Shown in pieces: positions 5,516 to 24,821 of a DNA stretch of 32,000 nt. Position numbers and translations under genes: made by a program. The DNA is from Acholeplasma laidlawii PG-8A (GTDB lineage: Bacteria > Bacillota_I > Bacilli_A > Acholeplasmatales > Acholeplasmataceae), in the NCBI RefSeq assembly GCF_000018785.1, contig NC_010163.1, positions 1,020,001 to 1,052,000 on the forward strand, in the 5' to 3' direction. The notes below the pieces were generated by a model. That model had not been told where the DNA came from, did no database searches, and saw only the letters and a list, made by a program, of their open reading frames with translations. Position 1 is the first letter of the stretch. Each line of letters starts with the position of its first letter.

Positions 5516-5556
5516 ACCTCATTTGTGATATATTAAATACAAGTGAGGTATTTTTT
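5516..5556 (+). terminator. Intrinsic terminator after metQ
   Basis: Stem ACCTCATTTGT (5516-5526) pairs with ACAAGTGAGGT (5539-5549) with one G-U pair, followed by ATTTTTTT. Confidence 0.6.
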
Positions 5557-8681: not shown

Positions 8682-8685
8682 AGTA

Positions 8686-9318
8686 TTACACCATAACCTT
8701 TACACGGTATACGAGTGCATGATACACAGACTTTTGAGCCGTTGTAAGACCATCATAAGCGCCCCAAACATAAATGTATACACGTATAGATGATTCACCT
8801 TGAAGTGAAAATCCTGCTAAATTATGTTGATTCATCGCTGTAAACACACTACCAGTTGATTGGAAATATTGAAATCTATTTGCCATGTATACAGTTTGTG
8901 TTAATGTAGGATGTTCTTCTAGCACAAGATATTTTAAACCAGCTTGATTACCAGCATACACACCAAATTCAGGTGCTGCTACAACATTAAGTTGTAGATT
9001 CACATTCACTGATGTTAATCCTGGATTAGTAATAACAATTTCAAGTACTGATGCATATCCATAAAAGTTAAAACTTGTATCATTAAAATCACTATCATTT
9101 AAGTAAACTAAGTCTCTTATGCGATCTCCTAAAAAGATACCTTCAGTTTCAGCATCAATTTCTAAGACATCCTCATTACCCATTAATGAACCTTCAAAGT
9201 AATCTACATTTGCACGATTGCCATAGTCAATAAACCAAGCAAAAACGCCAGTTGCCATGGAAGCCACTGATACAAGTAAGAATATGATTAAGATAACTGA
9301 TCTTCTTAATGATTTCAT
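8686..9318 (-). CDS. SipW-dependent-type signal peptide protein (TasA/camelysin-like, small paralogue)
   Basis: N-terminus SMATGVFAWFIDYGNRANVDYFEGS. C-terminal VYIYVWGAYDG motif is shared in degenerate form with three paralogues upstream. GAAAGG RBS lies 5 nt from the ATG. Confidence 0.6.
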   Translation of the reverse strand: MKSLRRSVILIIFLLVSVASMATGVFAWFIDYGNRANVDYFEGSLMGNEDVLEIDAETEGIFLGDRIRDLVYLNDSDFNDTSFNFYGYASVLEIVITNPGLTSVNVNLQLNVVAAPEFGVYAGNQAGLKYLVLEEHPTLTQTVYMANRFQYFQSTGSVFTAMNQHNLAGFSLQGESSIRVYIYVWGAYDGLTTAQKSVYHALVYRVKVMV

Positions 9319-9333
9319 ACGTACCTTTCCGAT

Positions 9334-9399
9334 GCAACTGGCTGTCTATTACTAATTAGACCCTTTAGTTTTGCGTCCTTAAGTTACCTTAAGTTTGCC
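9334..9399 (-). promoter_or_regulatory. c-di-GMP-I (GEMM-I) riboswitch aptamer, intra-operon copy
   Basis: Minus strand reads GGCAAA-CUUAAG-GUAA-CUUAAG-GACGCAAAACUAAAGG-GUCUA-AUUAGUAA-UAGAC-AGCCAGUUGC. It has the GGCAAA, GNRA-capped P1 hairpin, GACGCAAA and CAGCC.GUUGC hallmarks of GEMM-I. It starts 3 nt after the sipW stop and ends about 6 nt before the RBS of the next gene. Confidence 0.75.
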
Positions 9400-9401
9400 T
9401 T

Positions 9402-9995
9402 TTAATCTTGACGTTTGTCGTTTTTTTGTTTTAATTCTTGTTTATATTTTTCTAAGTCTGTTTTATATTTATATTTTTGACGCTCAGTAATTTGATAAAT
9501 TACTATGAGTAGTTGAAAAATAAATATAAGTGCAATAATTAATATGATGATACCAATGACTAAGAGTCGTTCATTTACTAAATACCTTCCAATAAAACTA
9601 CCACCACTCCATACTACTTTAGATAAGTACTTTTCTTTGGTAATATAACCTTCAGTATCAAAATCACTTTCATCATTATTGACACCTTTTGTAATATAAC
9701 CTTCTGGGTTTTCAGAGATAATTTCATGGATTATAACTCGGTTATCCATAGATGTGAACGCAATGACATCTCCAATTTTCAAGTTATCAAATGCTACATC
9801 ATTCATAATAACAAAGTCCCCAACAAGGATTTCGGGTTCCATAGATGGTGTAAGTACTAAACCGTAACTAACACCTAAAATTGAAAATGGCTTTTTAGTT
9901 ATTTGACTTAATAAGGACATTGTAACAAATATGAGTGTGAAGAATATGATGATTGTTACAATAATCTTTTTAGTATGATTAATTGTCTTTTTCAT
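9402..9995 (-). CDS. sipW: Signal peptidase I, SipW (ER/archaeal S26B) type, paralogue 2
   Basis: N-terminal TM, LTPSMEPEILVGDFVIM (catalytic Ser box as in B. subtilis SipW SGSMEP), IIHEI (His box), KGVNNDESD, a C-terminal TM and a K/E-rich tail. ATGA overlap with the upstream gene. Confidence 0.8.
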   Translation of the reverse strand: MKKTINHTKKIIVTIIIFFTLIFVTMSLLSQITKKPFSILGVSYGLVLTPSMEPEILVGDFVIMNDVAFDNLKIGDVIAFTSMDNRVIIHEIISENPEGYITKGVNNDESDFDTEGYITKEKYLSKVVWSGGSFIGRYLVNERLLVIGIIILIIALIFIFQLLIVIYQITERQKYKYKTDLEKYKQELKQKNDKRQD

Positions 9996-11773
9996 TTACC
10001 TTTTTTTAAAGCAGCCATTGCTTTATCATGAGATGCTTTAATTTTCTCTTTTTGTTTATCAATGTATTGTTTTTGTTTTAACTTTTGCTTTTCTTTAGAA
10101 ATTCTAAGTTTTTCTTGAGCTTTTTCTTTACGTTTTCTTAGTCTTTCTAGTTCACGCTCAGCCTTACGTTTTTGAATATCTGCAATACGTTTAGCTTCTT
10201 TTTTGTATCTTTCACGATACTGTGTTTTTAATTCAAGCAACATTTCATTATCTTTTGCAACTTGAACCTTTTGTTCATCAAGCATTTCAACACGCTGTAA
10301 TTTTATGTACTCTTCATTTAGTTCACTAACTCTTTTAGCTTCTTTTTTAAGCTTTTCATCACTGTCTAGTTTAACAGACTTGAAGAATCTTTTTTGATAT
10401 CTAAGTGTTGTTTGATACCATTTTTTCTCTAGTGCGATTGCTTTTTTGTAATCAGCTTCTTTTAGTTGTCTTACGATAGATGCAATTTTAAATTTTTCAT
10501 CTGCACTATCTAAGTCATCTTTAGGGTTAGTTTCTTGAACTAATCTATCGAAGACATCATCGTCTTGATTGATTTCAAAATAAGATGCATAAAGACTGTT
10601 TGTTATTTCTATCGTATCTTTTAAAGCTTTTCTTAATGCGACTTCATATTTAGGTTCTGTCTGCATGTACTGATCAATAGTTTTCTTAAACATCTGTTTT
10701 GTCTTGTTTAAGTAAAATTCATTCATCAAAGTATCTTCAATTTTATAGCTTTCAGGATCGATTTTAAGTTCATCCGCAGTAAGTTTTATTTCTTCTGCTT
10801 TTTTCACCTTAAAACTTTTGGTTAATAACTTTTGGTCTTTTTCTCTTACAACATCATGAAACATCATGGTTGAGAATGCAAATAATGCATTTTGACTTAA
10901 GTGTTTACGATATGTTTCATTAAATCTTTTTTGTTTTACATCACGAATAAGTTCAAACCCTAAACTATTGTACTGGTCTAAGTATTGCCAGAGTAGGTAA
11001 CAATTTCGGTAGTTCGTATTTTTTAAGATGATTTGTGTTTTCATGATTGGGGCTTTTACCTTTCGGTAATTGCGCATCGTCTTCATGAATTCAGTATTTA
11101 AAGCATTTGCTAACTTTTTGTGAAGTTCTTGTGCACGTGCTAATAACTTTTGATTATCTTCTTCAATTTTACCTTGATCGATAGTTTGAACTTCTCTTAA
11201 ATCTATATTAATTTCATATTTTGAATTATCTATGGATAACTCAATGGTATTATTTAACTCTTTAATCTTTTTAGTATTAACGTCTTCTTCAAGTATTCTC
11301 ATACGTCTTGAGACAAAATCTACTAAACGTTGAATCAGAGTTGCAACAAATCTATTTTCATAAATACCAAACTCATCTTCTGAAAATTCAACTAAAAGCT
11401 TTTTAGGCATAACCTCAGTTGTTGGTTGATCTTTGTCTGGTAGTTTGAGTAAGTGTGTATTTGCAGCTAAGTGTCTAACAGTTCTAGATGTAGTTTTCTT
11501 TGCTTTTTCAACAATTACGACTTCCTCTTCAACTCTTAAGGCTGATTTGTAGTTTCGTAATATTTTATCTACATAAGGATAGTATGATTCAATAGCAAAT
11601 ATCCAGTGATCATCGAACTTTTTTGTTTCTGTTGTCTCTACTTGCTTAAGTTTATTTACGCCATCATATAAACCTTGATAAAAGTAAACAGGAAAGTCAG
11701 TATCTTCTTCGAGTTCATCAAGTCTTGAGATTAACATGGTGTAGAATAAATCTAAATCATAGCTATTTTTCAA
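9992..11773 (-). CDS. Cytoplasmic 593-aa partner protein: McrC/DUF2357-like N-terminal region, no recognisable nuclease motif, long K/E-rich coiled-coil C-terminus
   Basis: TTG start with a GAAAGG RBS, 15 nt after the ATPase stop. The FGIYENRFVATLIQRLVDF and NYRNCYLLWQYL motifs resemble the ENRF.. and Y..l..lW..L motifs that I recall from McrC/DUF2357 proteins. I see no PD-(D/E)xK-like D...(D/E)xK block. The last 130 aa or so are a K/E/R-rich heptad-like sequence (KRKAERELERLRKRKEKAQEKL...). Confidence 0.45.
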   Translation of the reverse strand: MKNSYDLDLFYTMLISRLDELEEDTDFPVYFYQGLYDGVNKLKQVETTETKKFDDHWIFAIESYYPYVDKILRNYKSALRVEEEVVIVEKAKKTTSRTVRHLAANTHLLKLPDKDQPTTEVMPKKLLVEFSEDEFGIYENRFVATLIQRLVDFVSRRMRILEEDVNTKKIKELNNTIELSIDNSKYEINIDLREVQTIDQGKIEEDNQKLLARAQELHKKLANALNTEFMKTMRNYRKVKAPIMKTQIILKNTNYRNCYLLWQYLDQYNSLGFELIRDVKQKRFNETYRKHLSQNALFAFSTMMFHDVVREKDQKLLTKSFKVKKAEEIKLTADELKIDPESYKIEDTLMNEFYLNKTKQMFKKTIDQYMQTEPKYEVALRKALKDTIEITNSLYASYFEINQDDDVFDRLVQETNPKDDLDSADEKFKIASIVRQLKEADYKKAIALEKKWYQTTLRYQKRFFKSVKLDSDEKLKKEAKRVSELNEEYIKLQRVEMLDEQKVQVAKDNEMLLELKTQYRERYKKEAKRIADIQKRKAERELERLRKRKEKAQEKLRISKEKQKLKQKQYIDKQKEKIKASHDKAMAALKKGK

Positions 11774-11788
11774 ATAGAGTCAACCTTT

Positions 11789-13339
11789 CTACATTTGTTT
11801 CTTATAGTTGTTAATCATATTACGTGCTTCAGTAAATGATTGTTTACCAAATAGTTTATCAATTAAAGCAATAAGCTCATCTAATTCTTTTCTTAAGAAT
11901 GGTAAGTTTAAGAACTCAAATTTACGTAATACTTTTCTAGTTATAATATAATCAAGACCATCTACCTCAGATTGTCCACAAGCAACGAATATTGGCACAA
12001 ATGTATTGATTTGTTTCATAATACGGTTACCAAATGTAATTTGGAAATTTTGCGTAATGAACTCATCTATTTTTTTAAGATTTTCTAATGATTTTTGAGA
12101 AATCGGGTTCATTTTTACTGCTTCTTTAAATAATGCATCCATGTAATCATGTGTGACATGAATTGAATCTGTGAATGGTGCATCAATGTAATCTGCTCTT
12201 ACAGATAATTCAATAGATGCAGCACGGTCATATACTTTATCTGTGATTGCAAATGTTGAGTCATCACGGTTAGCTGTACCTATGAACCAAATATTTGGTG
12301 GTAACAGTAGTTTTCCTTCTTTTAAGTGTATTGGATCACCTGGAACAGTATCTGATGTAATATCAATTTCCCATTCACTTGTATTTGGCATTTCCAATAT
12401 AGATAAGAAGTCAGCAAAGTAGTATTCAACACGCGCTAAGTTCATCTCATCTAATACAATAAAGTTTAGGTCAGTACGGTAAGTGGCTTCATAAATAGAT
12501 TTTAAGAAGTCAGTCTCATTAAATTTTTTGGTAAATTCATTTAGATATCCAATCATTTCTGCGCGATCACGCCATGATGGCTGCACAGAAATGATTGAAG
12601 TATCGTTATTAAAGAATTTCCCCATAGAATAAGGTAGAGACGTTTTACCAGTACCTGAGATCCCTTCTAAGATAATAATCTTTGAAGACCCCATACCTGC
12701 AAAAAATATTGAAACAATTTTTGGCGAATAAAATAATTTTAATTGTGATGCTGCAAAGTTAATAAATCTATCAACAAGTTGATTTAAGTTAAGCATATCT
12801 GACTCTGTCATGTTGGTTTGAAGTACTTGCATATGGTAAGTTTCATCCACTGCAATAAGCTTTGTAAAACGTGAAGTTTGTTCTTCTAACTTTTCATCCT
12901 CTTCCTCGTTTAACTTAGCTAATGTACCGGTTACACTACGACGATTCATAGGTAATCCTAGGTCACTTGATTTAAGTGTTAATATTGCATTTTTTTCATC
13001 AGTTACATCAATCAGTTTTTGATTAAGTTCTGTGATTTCAATTAAAAGATCGTCTTTAGAAACTTCCTTTTTCACGAATCTAAAATATCTACGCAATAGT
13101 ACGATGATAAAGTAAGCTAGTGATACAATAAATATGAAATTGATGATTAGTATTAATATACCAATGATCCAGTCCAAAGCGTTAAAGTTCATGCTTGCAT
13201 TTACAAATGAATCTAACATGTTCGATGGATTTACCCATAAAGCATAGTAGAATGCATTAAATATGGTTGCAAAGAATGATGCTACATACTCAAAAACAGT
13301 TTGGATGAATTCTATGTACCAAGTTGCAAACTCACTCAT
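11789..13339 (-). CDS. Membrane-anchored McrB-like AAA+ (AAA_5) NTPase
   Basis: Two N-terminal hydrophobic helices (about aa 15-35 and 57-82), then a coiled-coil linker. Walker A IILEGISGTGKTS (nt 12641-12664), SVQPSWRDRAEMIGYL, Walker B/McrB-type FIVLDEMNLARVEYYFADFLSILE, and LLLPPNIWFIGTANRDDSTFAITDKVYDRA (compare McrB iP.N.yiiGTMNtaDrs...D.AlrRRF). Confidence 0.7.
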   Translation of the reverse strand: MSEFATWYIEFIQTVFEYVASFFATIFNAFYYALWVNPSNMLDSFVNASMNFNALDWIIGILILIINFIFIVSLAYFIIVLLRRYFRFVKKEVSKDDLLIEITELNQKLIDVTDEKNAILTLKSSDLGLPMNRRSVTGTLAKLNEEEDEKLEEQTSRFTKLIAVDETYHMQVLQTNMTESDMLNLNQLVDRFINFAASQLKLFYSPKIVSIFFAGMGSSKIIILEGISGTGKTSLPYSMGKFFNNDTSIISVQPSWRDRAEMIGYLNEFTKKFNETDFLKSIYEATYRTDLNFIVLDEMNLARVEYYFADFLSILEMPNTSEWEIDITSDTVPGDPIHLKEGKLLLPPNIWFIGTANRDDSTFAITDKVYDRAASIELSVRADYIDAPFTDSIHVTHDYMDALFKEAVKMNPISQKSLENLKKIDEFITQNFQITFGNRIMKQINTFVPIFVACGQSEVDGLDYIITRKVLRKFEFLNLPFLRKELDELIALIDKLFGKQSFTEARNMINNYKKQM

Positions 13340-13368
13340 AATTGACCTTCTTATTTTATGTTAATAGT

Positions 13369-14058
13369 TTATTTTTTGTTGCTGTGTTTTTCTAATAATT
13401 CTTTTTCTAATTCTAAACGAAGTGCTTCTTTTTCAAGAGCATATTTTAATTCTAACTTTTCTTTGTTGCGTCTTAATATATATCTAATTAAGATAACAGC
13501 TTCAAATGTAAATAGAATAAACAGTGGTAAGATGACATAGAATACTAATCCGTTTGGCGTACGTATTTCTTGAATTGCACTACCAACACCAGACCAATGT
13601 CCTGTATATCTTCCTATAACATCATCTAGACTAGATGCTTCTAATTGCATATTAGGATCAAAGTTTGTACCATCAAATGAGCCGTACATACGTGCATTGA
13701 CATCACCTTGAGTTACTACTGTGTCTCCTGTAATAGTTTTGATTCTATGGATGATATGTATACGTTGAACGTTATCATAAAATACAATGATTTGACCAAC
13801 TTCTAAGTTTTGTTTTTGACTATCACTTAGAATATCTATAAATACTAGGGAGCCTGTATCAAAGTTGTCTTTCTCTTCACCTTCCATCGATCCAGATAGA
13901 ATAGAAACGAAGCCTTTACCAAAAATATTCGGTAAATCTTTTTCGGTTCTAACTGTTAGGTTGGATATTGAAAAGAGTAATAACATTAAGAGTAATAGAT
14001 AAAATACAACATTACCCACAATCCCTAAATACTTAAAGACTCGTTGTTTACTTGACAT
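13369..14058 (-). CDS. sipW: Signal peptidase I, SipW type, paralogue 1
   Basis: ILSGSMEGEE (Ser box), IHIIHRIKT (His box), TQGDVN and VIGRY all parallel B. subtilis SipW. C-terminal TM followed by a K/E-rich tail (LELKYALEKEALRLELEKELLEK). Confidence 0.85.
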   Translation of the reverse strand: MSSKQRVFKYLGIVGNVVFYLLLLMLLLFSISNLTVRTEKDLPNIFGKGFVSILSGSMEGEEKDNFDTGSLVFIDILSDSQKQNLEVGQIIVFYDNVQRIHIIHRIKTITGDTVVTQGDVNARMYGSFDGTNFDPNMQLEASSLDDVIGRYTGHWSGVGSAIQEIRTPNGLVFYVILPLFILFTFEAVILIRYILRRNKEKLELKYALEKEALRLELEKELLEKHSNKK

Positions 14059-14115
14059 GTGATATACCTCGTTTTAATTTTATGATTATATCATACCACT
14101 TTTAATTTAATTTAT

Positions 14116-14149
14116 GAAGAAAACCTTAATTGATTTCAAGGTTTTCTTC
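14116..14149 (-). terminator. Strong hairpin after the putative major subunit gene (partial terminator/attenuator)
   Basis: Perfect 12-bp inverted repeat GAAGAAAACCTT (14116-14127) / AAGGTTTTCTTC (14138-14149), 17 nt beyond the stop at 14166. The trailing U-tract on the minus strand is weak (AUAAAUUAAAUU). Confidence 0.5.
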
Positions 14150-14165
14150 AATATAATCAATAATA

Positions 14166-15077
14166 TTAAGCTGTTGCAGTAAAATTAAAGTTAACTGTTA
14201 AAACACCAGAAAGAATCGCGTTAAATGCTTCTTGATCCCAACCTTCAACCCAAACTCTAACTGTAATAGCTCCAACTTTTGCACTTGAACCACCAATTGC
14301 AGTTAATGATGATGTATCATAAGTATATCCTGAAATTACAGTTCCGTTCGGATTTAGTGCAGCAACAACTACAGTAAGTCCATTACCAGCTTGTTCTGTT
14401 GGTTTAAGAGCTAATGCAGCAGCAGCTGTATCAAAGTCGTTTTCAACAAGATCAGTATCCATGATAGCGTTATAGAATAAGATAGCTTCATTTGTAGCAT
14501 AAGTTCCAAAACCTAGACTATTTGTGTCAGTACCAACACTTTGCTCAAAAATTGTTGATGTTGTAGTAGTAATCATATCTTGGAAACTTACTCTTGCTGC
14601 ATTTGACACATAATCAAGGATTGGTGTATTTGCATCTGGAGCACCTGTTTGTCTAGTACCTGGTACATATATACCTGGAATCCAAGAAGTTTGTGTACCA
14701 CTAAGTGTTAATGAATCTATAATGATATTATTTAGGTTTGCAGAACCTGCAAACAATAAGTCAAATTCAATGAATCCAGCAGTTGCAGCTGTACTAGATC
14801 CTAGATCATATAAAGCTATACCATCTTGTGATGTTAATGGAACAAATGTTACAGCACCTGCAGCTGTTTGCATTTCAGTAGTTGTTAAAGTGTTTTTCCA
14901 AGTAGTTCCATCAAGTGAAACATAGAAACCTTCTCCGGTTTGAACTGTACCTGTGAAAGCTTCAATAGTCGCTCTATTATTAATTGTGAACCATGCTAAT
15001 ACCCCTACGGATAAAGCCACGCCTGTTAGTACTAATGCTAGTACCGACATAACTAATTTATTTGTTAATGATTTCAT
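14166..15077 (-). CDS. TasA-like fibre protein, probable major subunit (SipW-dependent signal peptide)
   Basis: Strongest RBS in the locus (TAAGGAGAGGAAAAAA-ATG). LSVGVLAWFTINNRATIEAFTGTVQTG parallels TasA GGTWAAFNDIKSKDATFASGTLDL. The mature part is T/A/G-rich with few charged residues. It ends VRVWVEGWDQEAFNAILSGVLTVNFNFTATA (compare the TasA C-terminal strand IKLQFSFEATQ). Confidence 0.7.
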   Translation of the reverse strand: MKSLTNKLVMSVLALVLTGVALSVGVLAWFTINNRATIEAFTGTVQTGEGFYVSLDGTTWKNTLTTTEMQTAAGAVTFVPLTSQDGIALYDLGSSTAATAGFIEFDLLFAGSANLNNIIIDSLTLSGTQTSWIPGIYVPGTRQTGAPDANTPILDYVSNAARVSFQDMITTTTSTIFEQSVGTDTNSLGFGTYATNEAILFYNAIMDTDLVENDFDTAAAALALKPTEQAGNGLTVVVAALNPNGTVISGYTYDTSSLTAIGGSSAKVGAITVRVWVEGWDQEAFNAILSGVLTVNFNFTATA

Positions 15078-15157
15078 TTTTTTCCTCTCCTTATTTAGGG
15101 AATTTTTTATTATTTATTTTTGTTACTTGGCTTTTAACCATTTATAACCTTATATTT

Positions 15158-16105
15158 TTATGATGCTTCAACATATCTGGCTGATCTTATATTTAAACTA
15201 ATAAGTAGTTTATCATCTAGTATCGGATCAAATGCATCTGCATCCCATCCTTCTAGCCAAATATTAATTGTTGTCATACCTTGATAAATGTAAGTTCCAT
15301 TATCTTCTGATATGAGTTGTAACTCTGCAAGTAAGCTTGTTTTATCTAGTGCTATATCATCTTGCAGTGGTGAAAATTTTGATAATTCATAGATTTCATT
15401 CGTTGGTGCTGGTGGTATTTGTAATTCAATACCTAAGCGCTTCATGAAATAATCATATGCTCCAAATACTTTTCCAAATCCTCGGTATCTATCTTCAGAT
15501 ACATCATATATGAATGATATATCAGGGTTTGGACTATCACTTGAAATTCTAACAGCATTTTTAGCATAATACAAACGATTTGTACCTGCAGGTATGATAC
15601 CCATACCATCATGAAATGCGATTGGGTTGGTCCATCTATTACCTTTAGATGTAACATATGTACCTTTTAGAGTAGATGCTTCATCATATACAGGATCAAT
15701 TTTATTTGATAGGTATATGAATTTTTGGTGTGCTCTTACATTTGGATTATCACTTGTTAATCTAAAATATAGATCAAAGGATATATAATCATCATTCTTA
15801 GTTGCCCTTTTAGTTAATTCATAAGGACCTTTGAAGAAGTTTTTACCATCTTGTGAAGTAATTGATGATAATACTGGGTTTTTACCAATAACATCCGATA
15901 ACATCTTATTATCTATAGTTTTATGATAAGTAATACCATCTAGTGACAGTTGAATGTTATCGTCTAATGAAATACCTATTTCAATAGCCTCAATCATATT
16001 TGTCTTAGATATTGAAAACCATGCATATACTGTAGTAGATAGTGTAATTGTTACACACATAAACGATATAATGAGTAAATAAAATTTCTTATGCATTTTA
16101 TTCAC
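15158..16105 (-). CDS. TasA-like fibre protein paralogue (SipW-dependent signal peptide)
   Basis: N-terminus LSTTVYAWFSISKTNMIEAIEIG. C-terminal INIWLEGWDADAFDPI motif is shared with the major subunit. 8-nt overlap with the upstream gene. Confidence 0.65.
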   Translation of the reverse strand: MNKMHKKFYLLIISFMCVTITLSTTVYAWFSISKTNMIEAIEIGISLDDNIQLSLDGITYHKTIDNKMLSDVIGKNPVLSSITSQDGKNFFKGPYELTKRATKNDDYISFDLYFRLTSDNPNVRAHQKFIYLSNKIDPVYDEASTLKGTYVTSKGNRWTNPIAFHDGMGIIPAGTNRLYYAKNAVRISSDSPNPDISFIYDVSEDRYRGFGKVFGAYDYFMKRLGIELQIPPAPTNEIYELSKFSPLQDDIALDKTSLLAELQLISEDNGTYIYQGMTTINIWLEGWDADAFDPILDDKLLISLNIRSARYVEAS

Positions 16106-16841
16106 CTGTTACACTTAAGATCATATTTAACTTTAATGATCCTCCAAGTAACTCTTCTTCAGTATATTTACCTATTTTTGATGTTAAATATTCTTCCAAA
16201 TATCCATCAATCCAAATAAATACTGTAACCTTTGAAACATCGCCTGCTTTGAGTTCAAATATATTTGAATCCACTGCAACCGAATTACTTCTAAACCTTA
16301 AGGATGAAACGTCATCTATTCTAAATGGTTGGAATTCATAGACATCTCTTACATCATCAACTACGACCATAATTCTTAAGTGTTCTTCAATATGATTATT
16401 TAATTCTTCAAACACTATTTTGTAGTTAATACGGTTTATTGTAGCTGTTTGATTCATGTTTTTAACATAAAATGTAAATGCTACAACTTCTCTATCTTTA
16501 TCTAAAACATTTTTTAGATAATATCCATTTGTATTTAGCGCTTCTTGATAGTGAAATGCCATAATACCCGAATAAGATGCTTGATTGACAAACGCAGTAC
16601 CTGGATACCTTAACACAGTTCTTGTATCTTTAAAATCTTCTGTTTCAGAGATTCTAATTGAGTGTCCACTAAAGTCATCAATCCTAACTGAGTAGTCTCC
16701 GGTATTTTGCCCATAAAACGATACAACACCTAATGTTAAGGATAGAAATCCAAATAACGGTATGAGCAGGAATATGAATTTAGATGTTCTGGTTGATCTT
16801 CTAATAGTGCTATTGATCCCCCAAAATTTAGTTGTCCTCAT
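16098..16841 (-). CDS. Divergent TasA-like paralogue with an atypical, possibly uncleaved, signal anchor
   Basis: Basic N-terminus plus TM (FIFLLIPLFGFLSLTLGVVSFYGQNTGD), with SFYGQ where the paralogues have AWF(T/S). C-terminal VTVFIWIDGYLEEY matches the family motif. First gene after the riboswitches (GAGGA RBS). Confidence 0.5.
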   Translation of the reverse strand: MRTTKFWGINSTIRRSTRTSKFIFLLIPLFGFLSLTLGVVSFYGQNTGDYSVRIDDFSGHSIRISETEDFKDTRTVLRYPGTAFVNQASYSGIMAFHYQEALNTNGYYLKNVLDKDREVVAFTFYVKNMNQTATINRINYKIVFEELNNHIEEHLRIMVVVDDVRDVYEFQPFRIDDVSSLRFRSNSVAVDSNIFELKAGDVSKVTVFIWIDGYLEEYLTSKIGKYTEEELLGGSLKLNMILSVTGE

Positions 16842-16861
16842 ATACGCATCCTCGTTTTATT

Positions 16862-16957
16862 AAAACAAAAACCAATTGCTTACCCTAGATAAGTGCAACT
16901 GGCTGCCTAATATATAGGCCCTATAGTTTTGCGTCATTAGGTTACCCTAATTTTGCC
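16862..16957 (-). promoter_or_regulatory. c-di-GMP-I (GEMM-I) riboswitch, proximal copy, with its own intrinsic terminator
   Basis: Minus strand reads GGCAAAAUUAGG-GUAA-CCUAAU-GACGCAAAACUAUAGG-GCCUA-UAUAU-UAGGC-AGCCAGUUGC. The terminator stem is CCAGUUGC (16895-16902) / GCAAUUGG (16872-16879), followed by UUUUUGUUUU. The terminator 5' arm overlaps the aptamer P2 3' strand. Confidence 0.8.
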
Positions 16958-16976
16958 AAAAACTTTACACATGCTT

Positions 16977-17004
16977 ATTTTAGCATATAGATTAAATTTG
17001 TCAA
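16977..17004 (-). promoter_or_regulatory. Sigma-A-type promoter driving the proximal riboswitch
   Basis: Minus strand has TTGACA (16999-17004), a 16-nt spacer and TAAAAT (16977-16982), about 20 nt upstream of the GGCAAA of the proximal aptamer. Confidence 0.5.
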
Positions 17005-17034
17005 CAAATTGTACTTAAAACGTCTTATAAAGCA

Positions 17035-17117
17035 ATAAAAACCAATTGCTATATAGCAACTGGCTATCCTAATTTGGACCCTGTAGTTTTGCGTCATTAA
17101 GTTACCCTAATTTTGCC
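17035..17117 (-). promoter_or_regulatory. c-di-GMP-I (GEMM-I) riboswitch, distal copy, with its own intrinsic terminator
   Basis: Minus strand reads GGCAAAAUUAGG-GUAA-CUUAAU-GACGCAAAACUACAGG-GUCC-AAAUUA-GGAU-AGCCAGUUGC. The terminator is CCAGUUGC (17056-17063) / loop UAUAUA / GCAAUUGG (17042-17049), followed by UUUUUAU. Confidence 0.8.
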
Positions 17118-17136
17118 TTTTTTATGATACGCTCAT

Positions 17137-17165
17137 ATTCTATCAAGTAATTTATTGCTTGTCAA
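17137..17165 (-). promoter_or_regulatory. Sigma-A-type promoter driving the distal riboswitch
   Basis: Minus strand has TTGACA (17160-17165), a 17-nt spacer and TAGAAT (17137-17142), about 20 nt upstream of the distal GGCAAA and just downstream of the stop of the GGDEF-EAL gene. Confidence 0.6.
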
Positions 17166-17184
17166 TAACTTTACATCATTATAT

Positions 17185-18585
17185 TTATTTTTCTAATTCT
17201 TTTCTAGCTTTTAAAAATTGGGTAGTATCAACAACATTCATTGGTTTAGTTAAATGATACCCTTGACCATAGTCTACACCTTTTAGAGTTAACATCTCTA
17301 CCATGGCTTGATCTTCAATACCTTCTGCAACAAGCATTAAAGACTTTTTCTTTACAAACTCAATAATCATATCTAAATACTTTCTAAAATTATAATTTTG
17401 TTCTAGTTTGAAGAAATCTTTGTTGAATTTAATCATGTCAATTTGGAATCTTTCAACCAAATCCATGACATCATAGTCAGTTGTAGATATATCTATAGCC
17501 AGTTTAAATCCCAGAGTTTTAATCTTTATTAGATTTCTTCTAAATACTTGATTATTCTTGTAAAGTGTAAAGTCAGGAATTTCTATTGCAATGTTTGATG
17601 CATCTTGACGATACTTTTCAACTAGTCGTTGAAAAATTGTAAATGTCATCTCATTTAAAATTTGTCTAGGTGAAACGTTAATATTAATTACAACATCATT
17701 AAGTCTTTGTTGACTTAAATCTACTAAGAGTTCAAGTGCTTGTTCAACTGCAATATTACCAATATCATCAAGTTCTCCTGTTTGCTCTGCAAGATGCAGG
17801 AACTTAGAAGGTGCTAATATCCCTTTTTTAGGATGATTCCATCGAAGTAATGCTTCTAGTCCATAAACTTTATTCATATCTTTTAAGTTGATGATAGGTT
17901 GATAATAATAAATGAACTCTTTATTATTTTTAGCATTTTTAAGTTCGTGAAATAAGTCTAAACTTTCTTTAGTTTGACTTAACTCCTCTGAATAATACTT
18001 AATGTCATTACCACCACTTCTTTTGACCATATAAAGAGCAATCTCAAGTGATTGGTATAATAAATCTAGATTTTCACCATGAAGCGGATAAGTAGCTATC
18101 GACATAGACACAGTTTTCTTTATTGTAACTTTGTCAAGAATTTGAATTTTCTTTTCTGCTTCTATCTTAATACTTTTTGCTAAATTATATATATTAGAGT
18201 GATCAAATGAAGCAGGTATATATAAATAGAAACGGTCAGGTTTTTCACCTCTAGCAATAACTGATTCTTCGGGTAGTGCACTATTAATGTGTTTTGAAAT
18301 ATAAGAAACGATAAATGTCTCTTCTTCTTTATTAAAAGTATCTACAATTTCTTGAAACTCATCTAAATCAACTAGCATTAAGGTAAAAGGATCATCTTTT
18401 TTCTTACGACGCTTAATAGCACGGTTAATCAATTGATTAAATACATCTATTGAAACAACCTCTTCAGATAATAGAAGTTTTTCATCTTTATATTTTCTAA
18501 TCTCAATTTTAAGTAAAAAGAATAAACCTATAATAAGGCCTATAATAACAACTACTATACCGAACATCAAAAGTATATCGGTCAT
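17185..18585 (-). CDS. Membrane-anchored GGDEF-EAL protein with degenerate GGDEF and partly degenerate EAL (possible c-di-GMP receptor)
   Basis: One N-terminal TM. The GGDEF position reads ARGEKPDRFYLYI. The EAL domain keeps EALLRW, NINVSPRQ, AEGIED and GQGYH, but has IAIEIPD and LAIDISTT where the metal-binding ELTE and DDFGTG motifs are expected. Confidence 0.8.
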   Translation of the reverse strand: MTDILLMFGIVVVIIGLIIGLFFLLKIEIRKYKDEKLLLSEEVVSIDVFNQLINRAIKRRKKKDDPFTLMLVDLDEFQEIVDTFNKEEETFIVSYISKHINSALPEESVIARGEKPDRFYLYIPASFDHSNIYNLAKSIKIEAEKKIQILDKVTIKKTVSMSIATYPLHGENLDLLYQSLEIALYMVKRSGGNDIKYYSEELSQTKESLDLFHELKNAKNNKEFIYYYQPIINLKDMNKVYGLEALLRWNHPKKGILAPSKFLHLAEQTGELDDIGNIAVEQALELLVDLSQQRLNDVVININVSPRQILNEMTFTIFQRLVEKYRQDASNIAIEIPDFTLYKNNQVFRRNLIKIKTLGFKLAIDISTTDYDVMDLVERFQIDMIKFNKDFFKLEQNYNFRKYLDMIIEFVKKKSLMLVAEGIEDQAMVEMLTLKGVDYGQGYHLTKPMNVVDTTQFLKARKELEK

Positions 18586-20987
18586 AAATTCACCTTCTTT
18601 TTTATAAACTCAAATGCTTCTTTTTCAGGAAGTGCTTGTGAAACATAAAAACCTTGAATAATAGCAGTTGATTCTTTCCTGATTTGTTCTACTTGTTTAT
18701 CAGTTTCTACCCCTTCAATAATAACACCCATTTTAAGATTCTTACCTAAAGCAATCATTGTTTTTAAAATTTGTCTTGCTTTACTAGATGTTTCAATTTC
18801 ATCAACAAATAATTTATCAATTTTTATGTTATCAATCGGTAGACGTTTAAGGTAGTTTAATGAAGAGTAGCCCGTACCAAAGTCATCAAGTTGGATTTTA
18901 AAATTAAGTTCTTTTAGTGCATTAAATTTTTCTACAATAACATCCATTTGTAAAATAAGTAGTGTTTCAGTAAGCTCAATTGCAATCCGACCTGGATCTA
19001 CTTGGTACTTATCTTTTAAAGCAATCAGTTCATTAATAAAACCAGGTTGAAGTAATTGTCTTGGTGAAATATTAAATGAAACATCAATATCCATACCTTC
19101 TAAAGACTTCGCTATTCTAAAGACCTTATCATTAATCACTCGCCCTAAGTCGATGATTAAATTAGATTTTTCTGCTTGTCTAATATAGGTTGCAGGAGAT
19201 TCTTTTATATATTTTGGATTATGCCAACGAAGCAGTAATTCAAAACCAACTACACGTTTTTCATGCAAGTCATATTGTGGTTGCATATACATTTGAAACT
19301 CATCGTTTTCTATACCTTTTCTAATATCTATTTCTAATTGGTTTGCTCTATTTCTTAAATCCAGATAGCGTTCTGTATATATCATTAAGTTATTTGTAGT
19401 AGATACGATTGCACGTTCATAAGTTACATCAACAGCATCTAGTATTTCTTTAGTTGATGCGTTAGTGATGGTACCTTTATTATGTACTATACCAATTAAT
19501 AGTTCTAACTTTACTGGTAAATCGGGTAATAAAATCTTTGTATCAACTAACTCCATCATTTGTTTTGCCCAACCAACGGTTACATCATAATTAACATCTT
19601 TTTGTTGAAGTATGACAAACTCATGTTTTTCGATATGGAATAAATACATATTTGGATACATCTTAGACTGAAATAATTCAATTAATACTTTATTTACTTC
19701 TTGTGACTTTTGACGTCCAATGGATTTAGAAATTTCATCAAAAGACTTAATACCTATGACAATCAAACTAAAGCGATCTTTTCTATTAAGCGTTTCTATC
19801 ATCTCTTCTAGTGCTAATTTATTTTTTAGTCCGCTATCTGGATGTGTTAAAGCTAAATCTTTATATTTATCTAATACATTTGAAGTACTATCAATAATTT
19901 CTCCTATGAGTTGATAGTTTCTTGCATACTTATTAACTAAAAATCTAACTCTTATTTTAGGGTCCAACTTATCACAATCCATATAAAATGGTTTATTTGT
20001 TTTCAATATGGTTGGCATATCTAACTTTTCACTGGTTAGATCAGTTAATAACTTAATTTCATGATGTTTTATTAGATTTAGAAATAATTTATTCATCTTA
20101 CGTATTTGACCTAAACCACCAGCTTCTATCATGATAAGATCAGATCTTAGTGTTTTAGTAATCTTTTCAAACACAATATCATCATCAAAACGTCTTTTGA
20201 CAACCATCAAACTAAATACTACAAAACTTGCAAGGATTAGTAGTCCTAGTGCTAGATAACTCCAAATAACTGGTACAAAAAGTACTAAATAGTCATATTG
20301 ATCATCAACACTTAAGTAAATATAATCACTATCTATTTTAGAATAAGATAATACATATGTTTTAGAATCAAGCGTATAATTTAAAAATCCAAACTCGTTT
20401 TGGCTTAACTTGGTATCTAAGTTGCTATAAACTGATGTCGGAAAATAGTTTGAGCCAAATAGGTTTGTGTTATTTACTGCATCATTCGAATGGTATTTAA
20501 CAATACCGTTAGAATTTAATACAAAACCTGTGTCACCAAAACTTAAACCCACCATTGCTAGCACTTCACTAAATGGTTTGTATGTTACTTGATTAAGTGT
20601 AGGATGCTTTAAGATTAGATAGGTTAGATTTGATGTTTCATCACTAAAGATATCAGATAATCGATTAATTTCATAATTGGATAGTTCACTTACAATTAAA
20701 GTGGATGGATCATAATCTTTTGTAGGCCATGTAAGCGTACCTGCACTATAACTTTCTGTTAACACATCGATTCTTGTGCTAAGTATGTCATATTCTATTT
20801 GGTGTGTTTCAAAAGAGATTCGATTAGCTTCATTTTTAAGGGTTGTGTCTAAGATGAAAATATAAAACAGGCTATATACAACAAGTAAAAAGCCTAAAAT
20901 GATAAATAATCTTAACATGAAGTTTTTAGTTGATTTCGTCAATTTATTCTCCCACCAGTTAAAAATAAATACTAATTTTATATTCAT
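18582..20987 (-). CDS. Sensor c-di-GMP phosphodiesterase: TM, extracytoplasmic domain of about 190 aa, TM, linker, degenerate GGDEF, intact EAL
   Basis: The EAL motifs are all present (FELLLRW, FNISPRQ, IAIELTET, QLDDFGTGYSSL, IKIDKLF, IIEGVET, IQGFY). The GGDEF position reads FHIEKHEFVIL. ATGA overlap with the downstream GGDEF-EAL gene. The start codon is uncertain because there is no clear RBS; Met24 is an alternative. Confidence 0.85.
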   Translation of the reverse strand: MNIKLVFIFNWWENKLTKSTKNFMLRLFIILGFLLVVYSLFYIFILDTTLKNEANRISFETHQIEYDILSTRIDVLTESYSAGTLTWPTKDYDPSTLIVSELSNYEINRLSDIFSDETSNLTYLILKHPTLNQVTYKPFSEVLAMVGLSFGDTGFVLNSNGIVKYHSNDAVNNTNLFGSNYFPTSVYSNLDTKLSQNEFGFLNYTLDSKTYVLSYSKIDSDYIYLSVDDQYDYLVLFVPVIWSYLALGLLILASFVVFSLMVVKRRFDDDIVFEKITKTLRSDLIMIEAGGLGQIRKMNKLFLNLIKHHEIKLLTDLTSEKLDMPTILKTNKPFYMDCDKLDPKIRVRFLVNKYARNYQLIGEIIDSTSNVLDKYKDLALTHPDSGLKNKLALEEMIETLNRKDRFSLIVIGIKSFDEISKSIGRQKSQEVNKVLIELFQSKMYPNMYLFHIEKHEFVILQQKDVNYDVTVGWAKQMMELVDTKILLPDLPVKLELLIGIVHNKGTITNASTKEILDAVDVTYERAIVSTTNNLMIYTERYLDLRNRANQLEIDIRKGIENDEFQMYMQPQYDLHEKRVVGFELLLRWHNPKYIKESPATYIRQAEKSNLIIDLGRVINDKVFRIAKSLEGMDIDVSFNISPRQLLQPGFINELIALKDKYQVDPGRIAIELTETLLILQMDVIVEKFNALKELNFKIQLDDFGTGYSSLNYLKRLPIDNIKIDKLFVDEIETSSKARQILKTMIALGKNLKMGVIIEGVETDKQVEQIRKESTAIIQGFYVSQALPEKEAFEFIKKKVNL

Positions 20988-22661: not shown

Positions 22662-23321
22662 TTATACCTCTAATACTTTCATTTTAAAATCTTTCGGAAC
22701 TTTTTTTAAGGCTTCCATCAAATTGGGTTTTCTACAATCTAGATTATGACAATCACTAGCGACGATATCAACTAAACCCTTTTTGAAGTATTTTTGAGCT
22801 TGTTTTTTAAATTGTTTTCCATCTAAACCTAATATTGCTCCACTATTAACTTGAGTGATTGCCCCTAGTGATCTTATACGTTCTACATCAAACATATCTA
22901 GATATAAGTAGCGCTCAATGTGCGCTATAATTGGCGTAAATCCTTTTGCCACTAAGTTGTAAACAATATCGTGAATTGGTTCTTTATTTTGAACAGAAAA
23001 TTCTATTAATAGATATTTTTCTTTGAAACCTTGAAAAACAAAGTTATGATACTCTTTTGATTTTTCTTGATTAAATTTAACTTCATATCCTAAGTAAAGC
23101 GTCATTTCTGGTAAATCTACTTCAACACGTTTTTTCAAATCAGCAAATAGTTTAACATATTCTTTTGACGAAACTTTTTGGCTACTATTATGTACATGTG
23201 GTGTAATAATAACCTTATTAACACCACTTTGTAGTTGATGTTTTAATACTGCAAGTGCTTCTTCATATGTTTGTACACCATCATCTACACCAGGTAAAAT
23301 GTGTGTATGTATGTCCATCAT
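22662..23321 (-). CDS. ywqE: Manganese-dependent protein-tyrosine phosphatase (PHP family, CpsB/YwqE-like)
   Basis: MMDIHTHILPGVDDG start motif. SDCHN near the C-terminus. I trimmed the listed ORF (to 23420) to the ATG at 23319-23321, which lies 4 nt after the kinase stop and has an AAGGA RBS. Confidence 0.85.
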   Translation of the reverse strand: MMDIHTHILPGVDDGVQTYEEALAVLKHQLQSGVNKVIITPHVHNSSQKVSSKEYVKLFADLKKRVEVDLPEMTLYLGYEVKFNQEKSKEYHNFVFQGFKEKYLLIEFSVQNKEPIHDIVYNLVAKGFTPIIAHIERYLYLDMFDVERIRSLGAITQVNSGAILGLDGKQFKKQAQKYFKKGLVDIVASDCHNLDCRKPNLMEALKKVPKDFKMKVLEV

Positions 23322-23325
23322 ATGC

Positions 23326-24081
23326 TTATGATTTTTCCTTATCAAGATCATCTTGTAGTGATGAATTATATCCATAACCATAGCCATATGTATAAGATAA
23401 TAAATCACTATTTTTAACATCTACTTGTGTAAATGCTATCCCGATGATATTCACTTTGTTTTGTTTTAGAGTTTGGATTGCTTCATTAATTACTGTACGT
23501 TTCGTCTCGTTTTGAGCAACTATAAATAATACACCATCTGCTAATCTTGAAATATATAAGGCATCAGAAACTGCCATAGTTGGAGGTGAATCAAGTAAAA
23601 CGTAATCAAATTCCGTTCTTAATCTAGCAATTAAATCCTTTAATTTTTGTGCTTCTAAGACGTTTACAACTGCAGTTGTACGTTCACCAGCAACAATATA
23701 GTGAACACTAAACTTCTCAGAATAGTTTATTAATGTCTTGTAGTCGATTTTACCAGTTAAGTAGTCTGTTACACCATTTTCATTAGGTGATCTAAAAATT
23801 CTATTAATCTTAGGTTTTCTTAAATCTAAATCTACAATAACAACTTTTTTTCCTTTTTTACCAATTAAATGGGCAACGTTAGAAATAAATGTGGTTTTAC
23901 CAGCACCAGCTAGCGTTGAAGTAAATTGGACGACCTTAAAATTACCATCAACGTTGATATACTCTAAATTCACTAATGCCTTTTGGAAAGCTTCTGCAGT
24001 ATAAGACATAGGTGATTCATACGTTACTAAGTGATCATATTCAGCAATACGCTCTTTTTGAAATAATTTACGTCTTCTCAT
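23326..24081 (-). CDS. ywqD: Bacterial tyrosine kinase catalytic subunit (CpsD/YwqD-like BY-kinase)
   Basis: Walker A LAGAGKTT, A' VIVDLDLRKP, Walker B VLLDSPP, and a C-terminal tyrosine cluster YTYGYGYGYNSS. Confidence 0.9.
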   Translation of the reverse strand: MRRRKLFQKERIAEYDHLVTYESPMSYTAEAFQKALVNLEYINVDGNFKVVQFTSTLAGAGKTTFISNVAHLIGKKGKKVVIVDLDLRKPKINRIFRSPNENGVTDYLTGKIDYKTLINYSEKFSVHYIVAGERTTAVVNVLEAQKLKDLIARLRTEFDYVLLDSPPTMAVSDALYISRLADGVLFIVAQNETKRTVINEAIQTLKQNKVNIIGIAFTQVDVKNSDLLSYTYGYGYGYNSSLQDDLDKEKS

Positions 24082-24821
24082 TTTTTCTTCCCCTCTTTAA
24101 TAAAAAACTCAGGAATAACACCAATGACTTGAATACCAGTACCTTGTTCAAGTTGCTCTTTGGTCATATAAGAGTTATTAAATAGGTGTTTTATAAATGC
24201 TAAGCCGATACCAATAATTGCACCACCCATTAAACCTACGATAATATATAATATTCTATTTGGTGAATCATCAACCGGATCACTTGCTGGTGATAACTCT
24301 ATAAATGAGTCTTCAAACATTAAAATGTCATTTTCTATTAAAATTGTAGTTAATACTGACGTAATCACTTGTGTAAAATCAGCATTAGAGTGGCTATAAC
24401 TAAATTTGATAATAAAAGATGTACTTGATGAAGCAACCGAAATATTACTAATAATGTCACGGTCTGACATCGAATCAAGTAGACTTTGATGTTCTACATT
24501 TGTGATTAAACTACGATATTCCTCAGTTCTTAGTTTTCTTACTATATGAGGACTTCTTGCAAATTCTGCTGCGGTATCAAGTAATCTTTGTGAATTGATT
24601 AAAGTATTAGAATCAACTCTTTCACTTGATACTGGTACTTGAACCAGTATTTCAGAAGTTGATTTATACCTATCTTCTACAAAACGACTTACATAAGCGA
24701 ATGTAAGTACACCCAATAATAATGTGAAAAATGTAATCATGATCCAGTTTAATTTAATAATAGATATAATATCCATTAAACTTAGCCCAGACTCCTGATT
24801 TTCTTTATTTTCTAAATCCAT
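24078..24821 (-). CDS. ywqC: BY-kinase transmembrane modulator / Wzz-like chain-length determinant (CpsC/YwqC-like)
   Basis: Two TM helices flank an extracytoplasmic Wzz-type domain. ATGA overlap with the kinase gene. AAAGGGAGA RBS. Confidence 0.8.
   Translation of the reverse strand: MDLENKENQESGLSLMDIISIIKLNWIMITFFTLLLGVLTFAYVSRFVEDRYKSTSEILVQVPVSSERVDSNTLINSQRLLDTAAEFARSPHIVRKLRTEEYRSLITNVEHQSLLDSMSDRDIISNISVASSSTSFIIKFSYSHSNADFTQVITSVLTTILIENDILMFEDSFIELSPASDPVDDSPNRILYIIVGLMGGAIIGIGLAFIKHLFNNSYMTKEQLEQGTGIQVIGVIPEFFIKEGKKK

Follow-up and report, generated by a model that had tools for sequence, protein, structure and literature searches.

The stretch of DNA analysed here (the window, 32,000 nucleotides (nt) in full) comes from the chromosome of Acholeplasma laidlawii PG-8A. 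It contains on its minus strand the leader of an operon in which two aptamers of the c-di-GMP-I class (also named GEMM-I), a class of riboswitch for c-di-GMP (cyclic dimeric guanosine monophosphate), follow each other in series. Two genes for GGDEF-EAL proteins lie directly upstream of this leader, and genes for SipW-type signal peptidases are found in the operon downstream. The elements of the leader are listed in the order in which they would be transcribed.

17137 to 17165, minus strand: distal promoter P1 found by promoter scan, with -35 box TTGACA (17165-17160), 17-nt spacer, TG extension and -10 box TAGAAT (17142-17137).
17130 to 17131, minus strand: mapped transcription start site (TSS) of the operon, PG-8A position 1037131(-), from the 5'-ERS table of Fisunov et al. 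2016.
17052 to 17127, minus strand: distal c-di-GMP-I aptamer (aptamer 1), RF01051, 62.1 bits, E-value 4.8e-10, helices supported by covariation.
17036 to 17065, minus strand: intrinsic terminator T1, composed of AGCCAGUUGCU, an AUAU loop, AGCAAUUGGUU and a U-run, from terminator scan and ViennaRNA fold.
16977 to 17004, minus strand: proximal promoter-like site P2 found by promoter scan, with -35 box TTGACA (17004-16999), 16-nt spacer, TG extension and -10 box TAAAAT (16982-16977).
16891 to 16967, minus strand: proximal, ancestral c-di-GMP-I aptamer (aptamer 2), RF01051, 58.7 bits, E-value 3.2e-9, helices supported by covariation.
16862 to 16904, minus strand: intrinsic terminator T2, composed of AGCCAGUUGC, a 15-nt loop with a mini-hairpin, GCAAUUGGUU and UUUUUGUUUU, -12.9 kcal/mol by ViennaRNA.

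All these features fall within 16862-17165 on the minus strand, and an earlier, sequence-only reading of this DNA had placed the limits of the arrangement exactly, from the first -35 box through the end of the second U-run. We propose below that the leader consists of two complete promoter-aptamer-terminator cassettes acting in series as ON switches. Four lines of evidence from the sequence or from published data carry this proposal, namely the identity of the aptamers, the overlap of each aptamer with its terminator, the conservation of the arrangement and the mapped distal TSS.

The aptamers were identified by comparing the whole window with Rfam 15 using cmscan at gathering thresholds, which gave three matches: two to RF01051 (c-di-GMP-I, GEMM-I) and a related one at 9408-9329. 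The two RF01051 matches are full length (model positions 1-87), lie 160 nt apart and exceed the gathering score of 35 bits by 24-27 bits, and nothing in the whole window reached the gathering score of the c-di-GMP-II model (RF01786) in the same search. The sequence-only reading, which had recognised two GEMM-I elements 160 nt apart and had proposed a comparison with RF01051, using RF01786 as a negative control, was therefore correct on this point. The consensus positions of the junction (the G before GCAAA, GACGCAAA and AGCC) are matched in both window aptamers. Nucleotides at this junction are ligand-contact residues in published structures of the class. In an alignment of 10 related units, GACGCAAA and AGCC show no variation; GGCAAA is shared by nine of the units, and the tenth, that of Acholeplasmataceae UBA4853, has GGUAAA. 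The presence of G instead of A at the first junction position has been tied to selectivity for c-di-GMP over cyclic GMP-AMP (Sherlock et al. 2022, PMC9481103).

The structure of the aptamers is likewise maintained. Across the related units the tetraloop of the first hairpin stays of the GNRA type (GUAA, GGAA, GCAA or GAAA), and the 17 pairs of the aptamer helices are paired in 98.8% of the cells of the 10-unit alignment, with double changes at four pairs. None of 500 shuffles reached the observed pairing or the observed covariation score, and slid controls drop to 9-42% paired. It should be noted that the covariation seen between the two window copies themselves is smaller than had been supposed: the difference between AUUAGG/CCUAAU and AUUAGG/CUUAAU, which had been presented as compensatory, is a one-sided change of G-C to G-U, and the sole true double change between them is C-G versus U-A in the inner stem of the second hairpin. 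Taken together, the sequence and its conservation argue that both elements are bona fide c-di-GMP-I aptamers, and they would be expected to bind c-di-GMP.

Each aptamer is followed by its own intrinsic terminator, as had been claimed from the sequence. The T1 hairpin (17065 to 17040) has 11 pairs and a U-run, was found by the terminator scan and has a folding energy of -13.3 kcal/mol on its own; T2 was missed by the scan because of its 15-nt loop and was recovered by ViennaRNA. In the Rfam alignment, the second hairpin of the aptamer is closed by AACU/AGUU and GG/CC, and both CC and AGUU belong to AGCCAGUUGC. In both units AGCCAGUUGC therefore doubles as the 5' arm of the terminator and the 3' strand of the second aptamer hairpin, so that terminator arm and aptamer helix have 6 nt in common, which bears out the earlier statement that the terminator arm is the strand closing helix P2 of the aptamer (not to be confused with promoter-like site P2). 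No separate anti-terminator is present in either window unit. When each of 10 units from six genomes was folded from its predicted start to the U-run, the minimum free energy structure contained the terminator, with the second hairpin open at its base, in all 10. For the window units the terminator state has -23.5 (unit 1) and -31.9 kcal/mol (unit 2), and the best fold in which the Rfam aptamer pairs are enforced, from which the terminator is absent, has -13.7 and -20.8 kcal/mol, respectively, which corresponds to a cost of 9.8-11.1 kcal/mol for enforcing the aptamer.

As the default fold is the terminator, and ligand would capture the shared strand within the aptamer, each unit is predicted to be an ON switch. 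The ON-switch prediction of the sequence-only reading thus gains support from the overlap and from the computed stability of the terminator state, which is lower in energy by about 10-11 kcal/mol than the best structure retaining the aptamer, and ON polarity in vivo is what these models lead us to infer. The same overlap between terminator and P2 helix, with the same ON logic, has been proposed for 78 of 322 GEMM RNAs (Weinberg et al. 2007, PMC1950547). We also considered that the units might be OFF switches, or that constitutive terminators might stand beside decayed aptamers that regulate nothing. No positive evidence for either version was found in this analysis; the OFF-switch reading was rejected, as the terminator arm lies inside the aptamer helix and a separate anti-terminator is lacking, and decay is at odds with the high scores of the aptamers and with the fact that the core consensus positions are all kept across nine lineages. 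We therefore regard this explanation as very improbable.

The history of the leader was traced by gathering it from eight other Acholeplasma lineages, which gave 14 units from nine lineages including A. laidlawii, whose leader varies by at most one base among five assemblies. According to Rfam, two aptamers precede the orthologous gene in A. laidlawii, in Acholeplasma granularum (L008) and in the uncultured lineages L007, L010 and L015, and one aptamer precedes it in Acholeplasma oculi (L009 and L013), UBA4853 (L011) and L014. Identity is 64-72% among the distal units and 70-76% among the proximal units, whereas the two units of one genome are only 63-71% identical. Because the units within a genome have diverged to this extent, and distal units are most like each other, the duplication of the cassette is old, and the comparison of units gave no sign of recent homogenisation between them. 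The proximal unit is judged to be the ancestral one from its position, from the promoter-region sequence that it shares with the single units and, weakly, from its identity: the A. oculi single unit (L009) is 66-73% identical to the proximal set and 66-68% to the distal set, a difference that is small. The UBA4853 single unit shows no clear affinity for one set over the other. The distal cassette would then be a duplicate of the whole unit of about 160 nt that arose before the divergence of the laidlawii/granularum group.

In all lineages the distal terminators have short loops of 4-7 nt (-13.3 to -21.1 kcal/mol), and the loops of the proximal ones are 12-16 nt long and enclose a small hairpin, a contrast that suggests different kinetics for the two checkpoints. 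The 10-pair terminator helix is 100% paired in the 10-unit alignment, and its substitutions are one-sided only, because the 5' arm is frozen by the aptamer.

The promoters are conserved as well. P1 and P2 each match the consensus at 11 of 12 positions in the promoter scan, and the predicted start from P2 is G16970. Among the promoters of the 14 units, the -35 box TTGACA is invariant, the spacer is 16-17 nt long, the -10 box matches TATAAT at five of six positions and the TG extension is present in 12, with spacer sequences that are essentially unrelated between units. In 12 of the 14, the -10 box is separated by 16-22 nt from the GGCAAA core that follows it, and in the other two the automated measure of this distance was misplaced by an earlier GGCAAA/GGTAAA match. 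An invariant motif around a drifting spacer indicates that selection acts on promoter function, and it does so at both positions. The motif of the cassettes agrees with the consensus determined experimentally for A. laidlawii (-35 TTGACA, EXT TRTG, -10 TAWAAT; Fisunov et al. 2016, PMC5138195), and P2 fits it at least as well as P1 does. Species with a single unit have a promoter of the P2 type only, and P2 is orthologous to this sole promoter.

Published transcription data allowed us to compare these predictions with mapped starts. The 5'-ERS study of A. laidlawii PG-8A reported 607 primary 5' ends for cells in exponential growth and under heat shock (Fisunov et al. 2016, PMC5138195). Window positions were converted by adding 1,020,000, which is accurate to within 1 nt as checked on five TSSs (1023265(+), 1025542(+), 1037131(-), 1040980(-) and 1044855(-)), each of which falls 5-7 nt after a -10 box in the window. 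The TSS at 17130/17131 lies 5-6 nt after the -10 box of P1 and is the sole one assigned to ACL_1013, which by gene counting is the first gene of the operon, encoding a protein of 247 amino acids (aa). Its coverage in the four libraries (627, 251, 562 and 569) ranks second among the rows in this section of the table. The distal promoter is thus confirmed and very strong. With such a start, experimentally among the strongest in the genome, the suggestion that the distal unit could yield a short terminated RNA is plausible.

The situation is different for P2. The table contains no entry beginning with 1036, and hence none at the predicted proximal start (about 1,036,970), in the two conditions and the one strain covered by 5'-ERS. 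The table lists starts with coverage of about 0.3, approximately 1000-fold weaker than P1, and often gives two starts per gene. Mis-mapping between transcripts from P1 and P2 is unlikely because the two predicted transcripts have many differences within their first 27 nt. The combination of a good consensus match with a table that is sensitive to very weak TSSs makes P2 look silent during exponential growth and heat shock, even though its sequence is nearly perfect. Of the earlier claim of two promoters, the part concerning the motifs stands, both being present and conserved, whereas activity is supported by the published map at P1 only. The sequence-only reading had held that the finding of a single TSS would refute it, and a single TSS is what this map gives, within the limits of two conditions and one strain.

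A side observation at this site is an inverted repeat, ATGCT-AAAATA-AGCAT, which flanks the -10 box of P2 (window 16970-16990, minus strand). In L010 and L015 it reads ATGCTA-AAATA-TAGCAT; L007 and L008 do not clearly retain it. It may serve as an operator that holds P2 in a silent state, or it may have arisen by chance in AT-rich DNA. A comparison of the P2 region by eye, which was not systematic, gave no match to the predicted transcription-factor motifs of A. laidlawii.

These data bear directly on the model put forward in the sequence-only reading, in which both promoters fire, transcripts from the distal one pass two checkpoints and those from the proximal one pass one. A first-order and a second-order response would then add up to the output. 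The quality of both promoters, their TG extensions, their retention throughout the five tandem lineages despite spacer drift, the nearly constant distance between -10 box and aptamer core, and the fact that the orthologue of P2 must function in the single-unit species all argue for it. The single ACL_1013 TSS, in a table sensitive enough to detect far weaker starts and permissive enough to list several per gene, argues against it, and we consider that this model falls somewhat short of even odds.

The strength of P1 also raises the question of whether the distal cassette is chiefly a small-RNA gene in its own right, producing an RNA of about 95 nt made of aptamer and terminator that acts in trans or buffers c-di-GMP, with the operon driven by P2. 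The rank of the P1 TSS, the default fold that terminates at T1 and the distinctive short-loop distal terminators kept in all lineages fit such a gene. The lack of a detected P2 TSS would leave the operon without a detected promoter, and the aptamer/terminator overlap of the distal unit is preserved exactly like that of a cis-acting ON switch, so that we regard this explanation as unlikely. The related possibility that the distal cassette is a highly expressed, free-standing riboswitch RNA gene that buffers or reports c-di-GMP or acts in trans, with P2 as a separately regulated entry into the operon, seems to us about equally doubtful; if it were true, a few hundred copies of the RNA of about 95 nt could rival the ligand pool in so small a cell.

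The reading that we prefer, to which we assign a probability of roughly 0.7, is that the leader comprises two complete promoter-aptamer-terminator c-di-GMP-I cassettes in series that act as ON switches, with two checkpoints behind a strong P1. The arrangement is a tandem with independent expression platforms, given that both aptamers belong to the same class, lie on the same strand in the same leader and are preceded by the mapped TSS. In the absence of ligand, the far more stable terminator would form in each unit and transcription would stop. When c-di-GMP is bound during transcription, the shared strand would be held in the aptamer, the terminator would be blocked and RNA polymerase would continue. 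Operon mRNA initiated at the strong distal promoter would thus pass two c-di-GMP-gated terminators in succession, and multiplication of the two occupancy terms would reduce leak and make the response steeper and pseudo-cooperative. When c-di-GMP is low, a roughly 95-nt RNA that ends at T1 would be abundant and would be the main product. P2, being under selection, probably adds single-checkpoint transcripts in unsampled conditions, or may be held off by a regulator. The shape of the response and the activity of the proximal promoter are thus predictions of this reading.

Several points weigh against it. The published table lacks a proximal start, so that P2 looks silent in the two conditions sampled. 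Strong activity of P2, on the other hand, would leave the double checkpoint with little importance. Furthermore, the terminator helix has no independent covariation support, its substitutions being one-sided only, and the thermodynamic folds from which the ON logic was derived leave out co-transcriptional kinetics.

The operon that the cassettes would control occupies the following positions.

16098 to 16853, minus strand: Shine-Dalgarno sequence GAGGA (16853-16849) and the first gene (16841-16098, 247 aa, ACL_1013), from the list of open reading frames (ORFs).
9402 to 16105, minus strand: the remaining genes of the operon, encoding proteins of 315, 303, 229, 516, 593 and 197 aa, from the same list.

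The order of the products is 247 aa, the paralogues of 315 and 303 aa, the SipW-like protein of 229 aa, the P-loop protein of 516 aa, the protein of 593 aa and the SipW-type protein of 197 aa, and this gene order is the same in four other lineages. The 247-aa protein has 15 homologues, all from Acholeplasma, and no Pfam or NCBIfam match, and complete A. laidlawii chromosomes encode it with an identical sequence. The 303-aa and 315-aa proteins are paralogous (E-value 5e-15); in each, AWF[ST] comes after a hydrophobic segment at the N-terminus, and a W-EGWD motif is found C-terminally. The 593-aa protein is rich in lysine and glutamate. Both SipW-type peptidases exceed the cut-off of TIGR02228 (51.85 bits), with 77.0 bits for the 197-aa and 52.5 bits for the 229-aa protein, and the match to the Bacillus SipW equivalog model stays below the cut-off of that model.

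The sequence-only reading had described the operon as being of the SipW/TasA type, and the first half of this label is borne out by the two peptidase genes. As to the second half, neither single sequences nor 33 family members of the secreted proteins gave a Pfam or NCBIfam match, and searches of PDB by sequence and by profile gave nothing meaningful. The AlphaFold model of the 303-aa protein (pLDDT 85.7) is mostly beta, and its top Foldseek match in PDB is the TasA fibre (8aur), a weak match (E-value 4.2e-3, probability 0.80, TM 0.26/0.33) that is followed in the list by donor-strand pilins. The model lends the TasA-type label weak support. The operon encodes SipW-type signal peptidases and, probably, their secreted substrates.

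Other features of these genes were observed in passing. The 315-, 303-, 210- and 745-aa proteins (6444-9318 and 14166-16105, minus strand) all have an N-terminal hydrophobic segment ending in A-W-F, and the 745-aa protein also bears a CBM5/12 carbohydrate-binding module; together with the two SipW-type peptidases, these sequences look like an Acholeplasma-specific family of SipW-processed surface proteins. The 516-aa P-loop protein (11789-13339, minus strand) matches the PADLOC candidate defence protein PDC-M26A (E-value 6e-40), and its gene is the most conserved of the operon, with 82-91% identity across lineages versus 51-77% for the 303-aa secreted protein. Its 593-aa neighbour (9992-11773, minus strand) has no family match.

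The third Rfam match in the window, at 9329-9408 on the minus strand, is an aptamer of the c-di-GMP-I type whose start overlaps the end of the second SipW gene by 7 nt and which ends 10 nt before the ATG of the 210-aa gene. It was matched by the Rfam variant c-di-GMP-I-GGC with 59.4 bits versus a gathering score of 59. We rejected the assignment to this variant as unproven, as the score is 0.4 bits over the threshold and the aptamer has A, not G, at the bracketed position of CGC[G]AA, which is where the consensus of the variant departs from the standard one; by its sequence it looks like an aptamer of the standard type. No terminator follows it, and no promoter for it was found in this analysis or in the published TSS table. 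Translation, Rho or RNA stability are possible routes through which it might act.

Upstream of the cassettes, the neighbourhood is as follows.

17185 to 20987, minus strand: two GGDEF-EAL genes directly upstream of the leader (Pfam EAL, E-values 6.8e-53 and 8.3e-60, plus GGDEF).

A GGDEF-EAL neighbour of the cassettes is present in all lineages. A. laidlawii has 14 GGDEF/EAL proteins, which were absent from the other mycoplasmas sequenced by 2008. The terminator scan found no terminator between the GGDEF-EAL stop codon (17185) and P1, and T1 would therefore also end transcription arriving from the GGDEF-EAL genes. The 801-aa GGDEF-EAL ORF starts at 20987 (minus strand) but a published TSS (20980/20979) falls inside it (window 20942-20987); the true start codon is probably downstream of 20987, which agrees with a product of 786 aa in other assemblies. 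Similarly, the published TSS of ACL_1004 lies 1-2 nt before the GTG at 5543 (window 5541-5543, plus strand), which means either a leaderless mRNA or a wrongly set start codon. At 22662-24821 on the minus strand, upstream of the GGDEF-EAL genes by a few kb, are genes for a CpsB/CapC phosphatase, a P-loop tyrosine-kinase-like protein and a Wzz-domain protein, which by their sequences would form a capsule or exopolysaccharide chain-length module in a wall-less organism.

If this reading is right, the locus is a compact c-di-GMP circuit in a mollicute, a class nearly devoid of second-messenger signalling: within about 14 kb, two GGDEF-EAL genes, two serial ON riboswitches, a third aptamer and a lineage-specific secretion/surface operon are found together. 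The sister species with one cassette and the laidlawii/granularum group with two provide a natural comparison for the effect of a second checkpoint and a second promoter. The puzzle that the locus presents is that P2 is strongly conserved, yet has no detected TSS. The general picture of riboswitch biology is unchanged by these observations, and their interest is higher for the biology of the mollicutes. Our full-text literature search found no paper on c-di-GMP riboswitches in Acholeplasma and no mention of the locus tags ACL_1005 to ACL_1014.

With respect to other systems, the novelty attributed to the arrangement by the sequence-only reading was overstated. Among tandem riboswitches the c-di-GMP-I class is the commonest, with a catalogue of 347 doublets and 12 triplets, and a steeper response is generally expected where the members of a tandem have expression platforms of their own (Sherlock et al. 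2022, PMC9481103). Complete tandem units of this class are statistically enriched. For the triple tandem Bc3-5 of Bacillus thuringiensis, reduced leak and a sharper response have been shown experimentally (Zhou et al. 2016, PMC4759541). Bc3-5 and the catalogued doublets resemble the Acholeplasma leader in having aptamers of the same class in one leader, each with its own intrinsic terminator, in the pseudo-cooperative, more digital ON response that is expected of them, and in the surface or adhesion-type proteins encoded downstream. The Acholeplasma module differs from the Bacillus tandems in that it includes a conserved promoter of the sigma-70 type (internal promoters in Bacillus lie outside this comparison), in that its host is a wall-less mollicute, and in that its target is an Acholeplasma-specific operon with SipW-type peptidases. 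At the level of mechanism, the GEMM RNAs with a terminator overlapping the P2 helix are the same as the Acholeplasma cassettes, the ligand being predicted in both to raise expression, and tandem GEMMs were noted in that study as well (Weinberg et al. 2007, PMC1950547).

Parallels for the order of elements and for the logic also exist outside the c-di-GMP class. In the tandem of an adenine riboswitch and a T-box(Tyr) of Clostridium botulinum, -35 and -10 boxes likewise precede the first element and lie between the two, which provides a precedent for an internal promoter between tandem riboswitches, and there too the choice of promoter sets whether one or two checkpoints are passed; that pair responds to two ligands and forms a logic gate, whereas the Acholeplasma pair consists of homologous duplicate modules for a single ligand (Sherlock et al. 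2022, PMC9481103). The tandem thiamine pyrophosphate (TPP) riboswitches of Bacillus anthracis are also two complete, independently acting switches for one ligand placed in series and giving a steeper response, and they are OFF switches for a metabolite, unlike the predicted ON cassettes of Acholeplasma (Welz and Breaker 2007, as cited in the riboswitch papers above). The leader described here is therefore a clean example of a common arrangement, in which the conserved internal promoter, with its putative activity, is a minor variation. We know of no internal promoter reported for the TPP tandem of B. anthracis. What is particular to the Acholeplasma leader, compared with these systems, is the duplication of a module that includes its promoter, the conservation of both promoters over five lineages, the existence of sister species with a single cassette, and the mollicute host.

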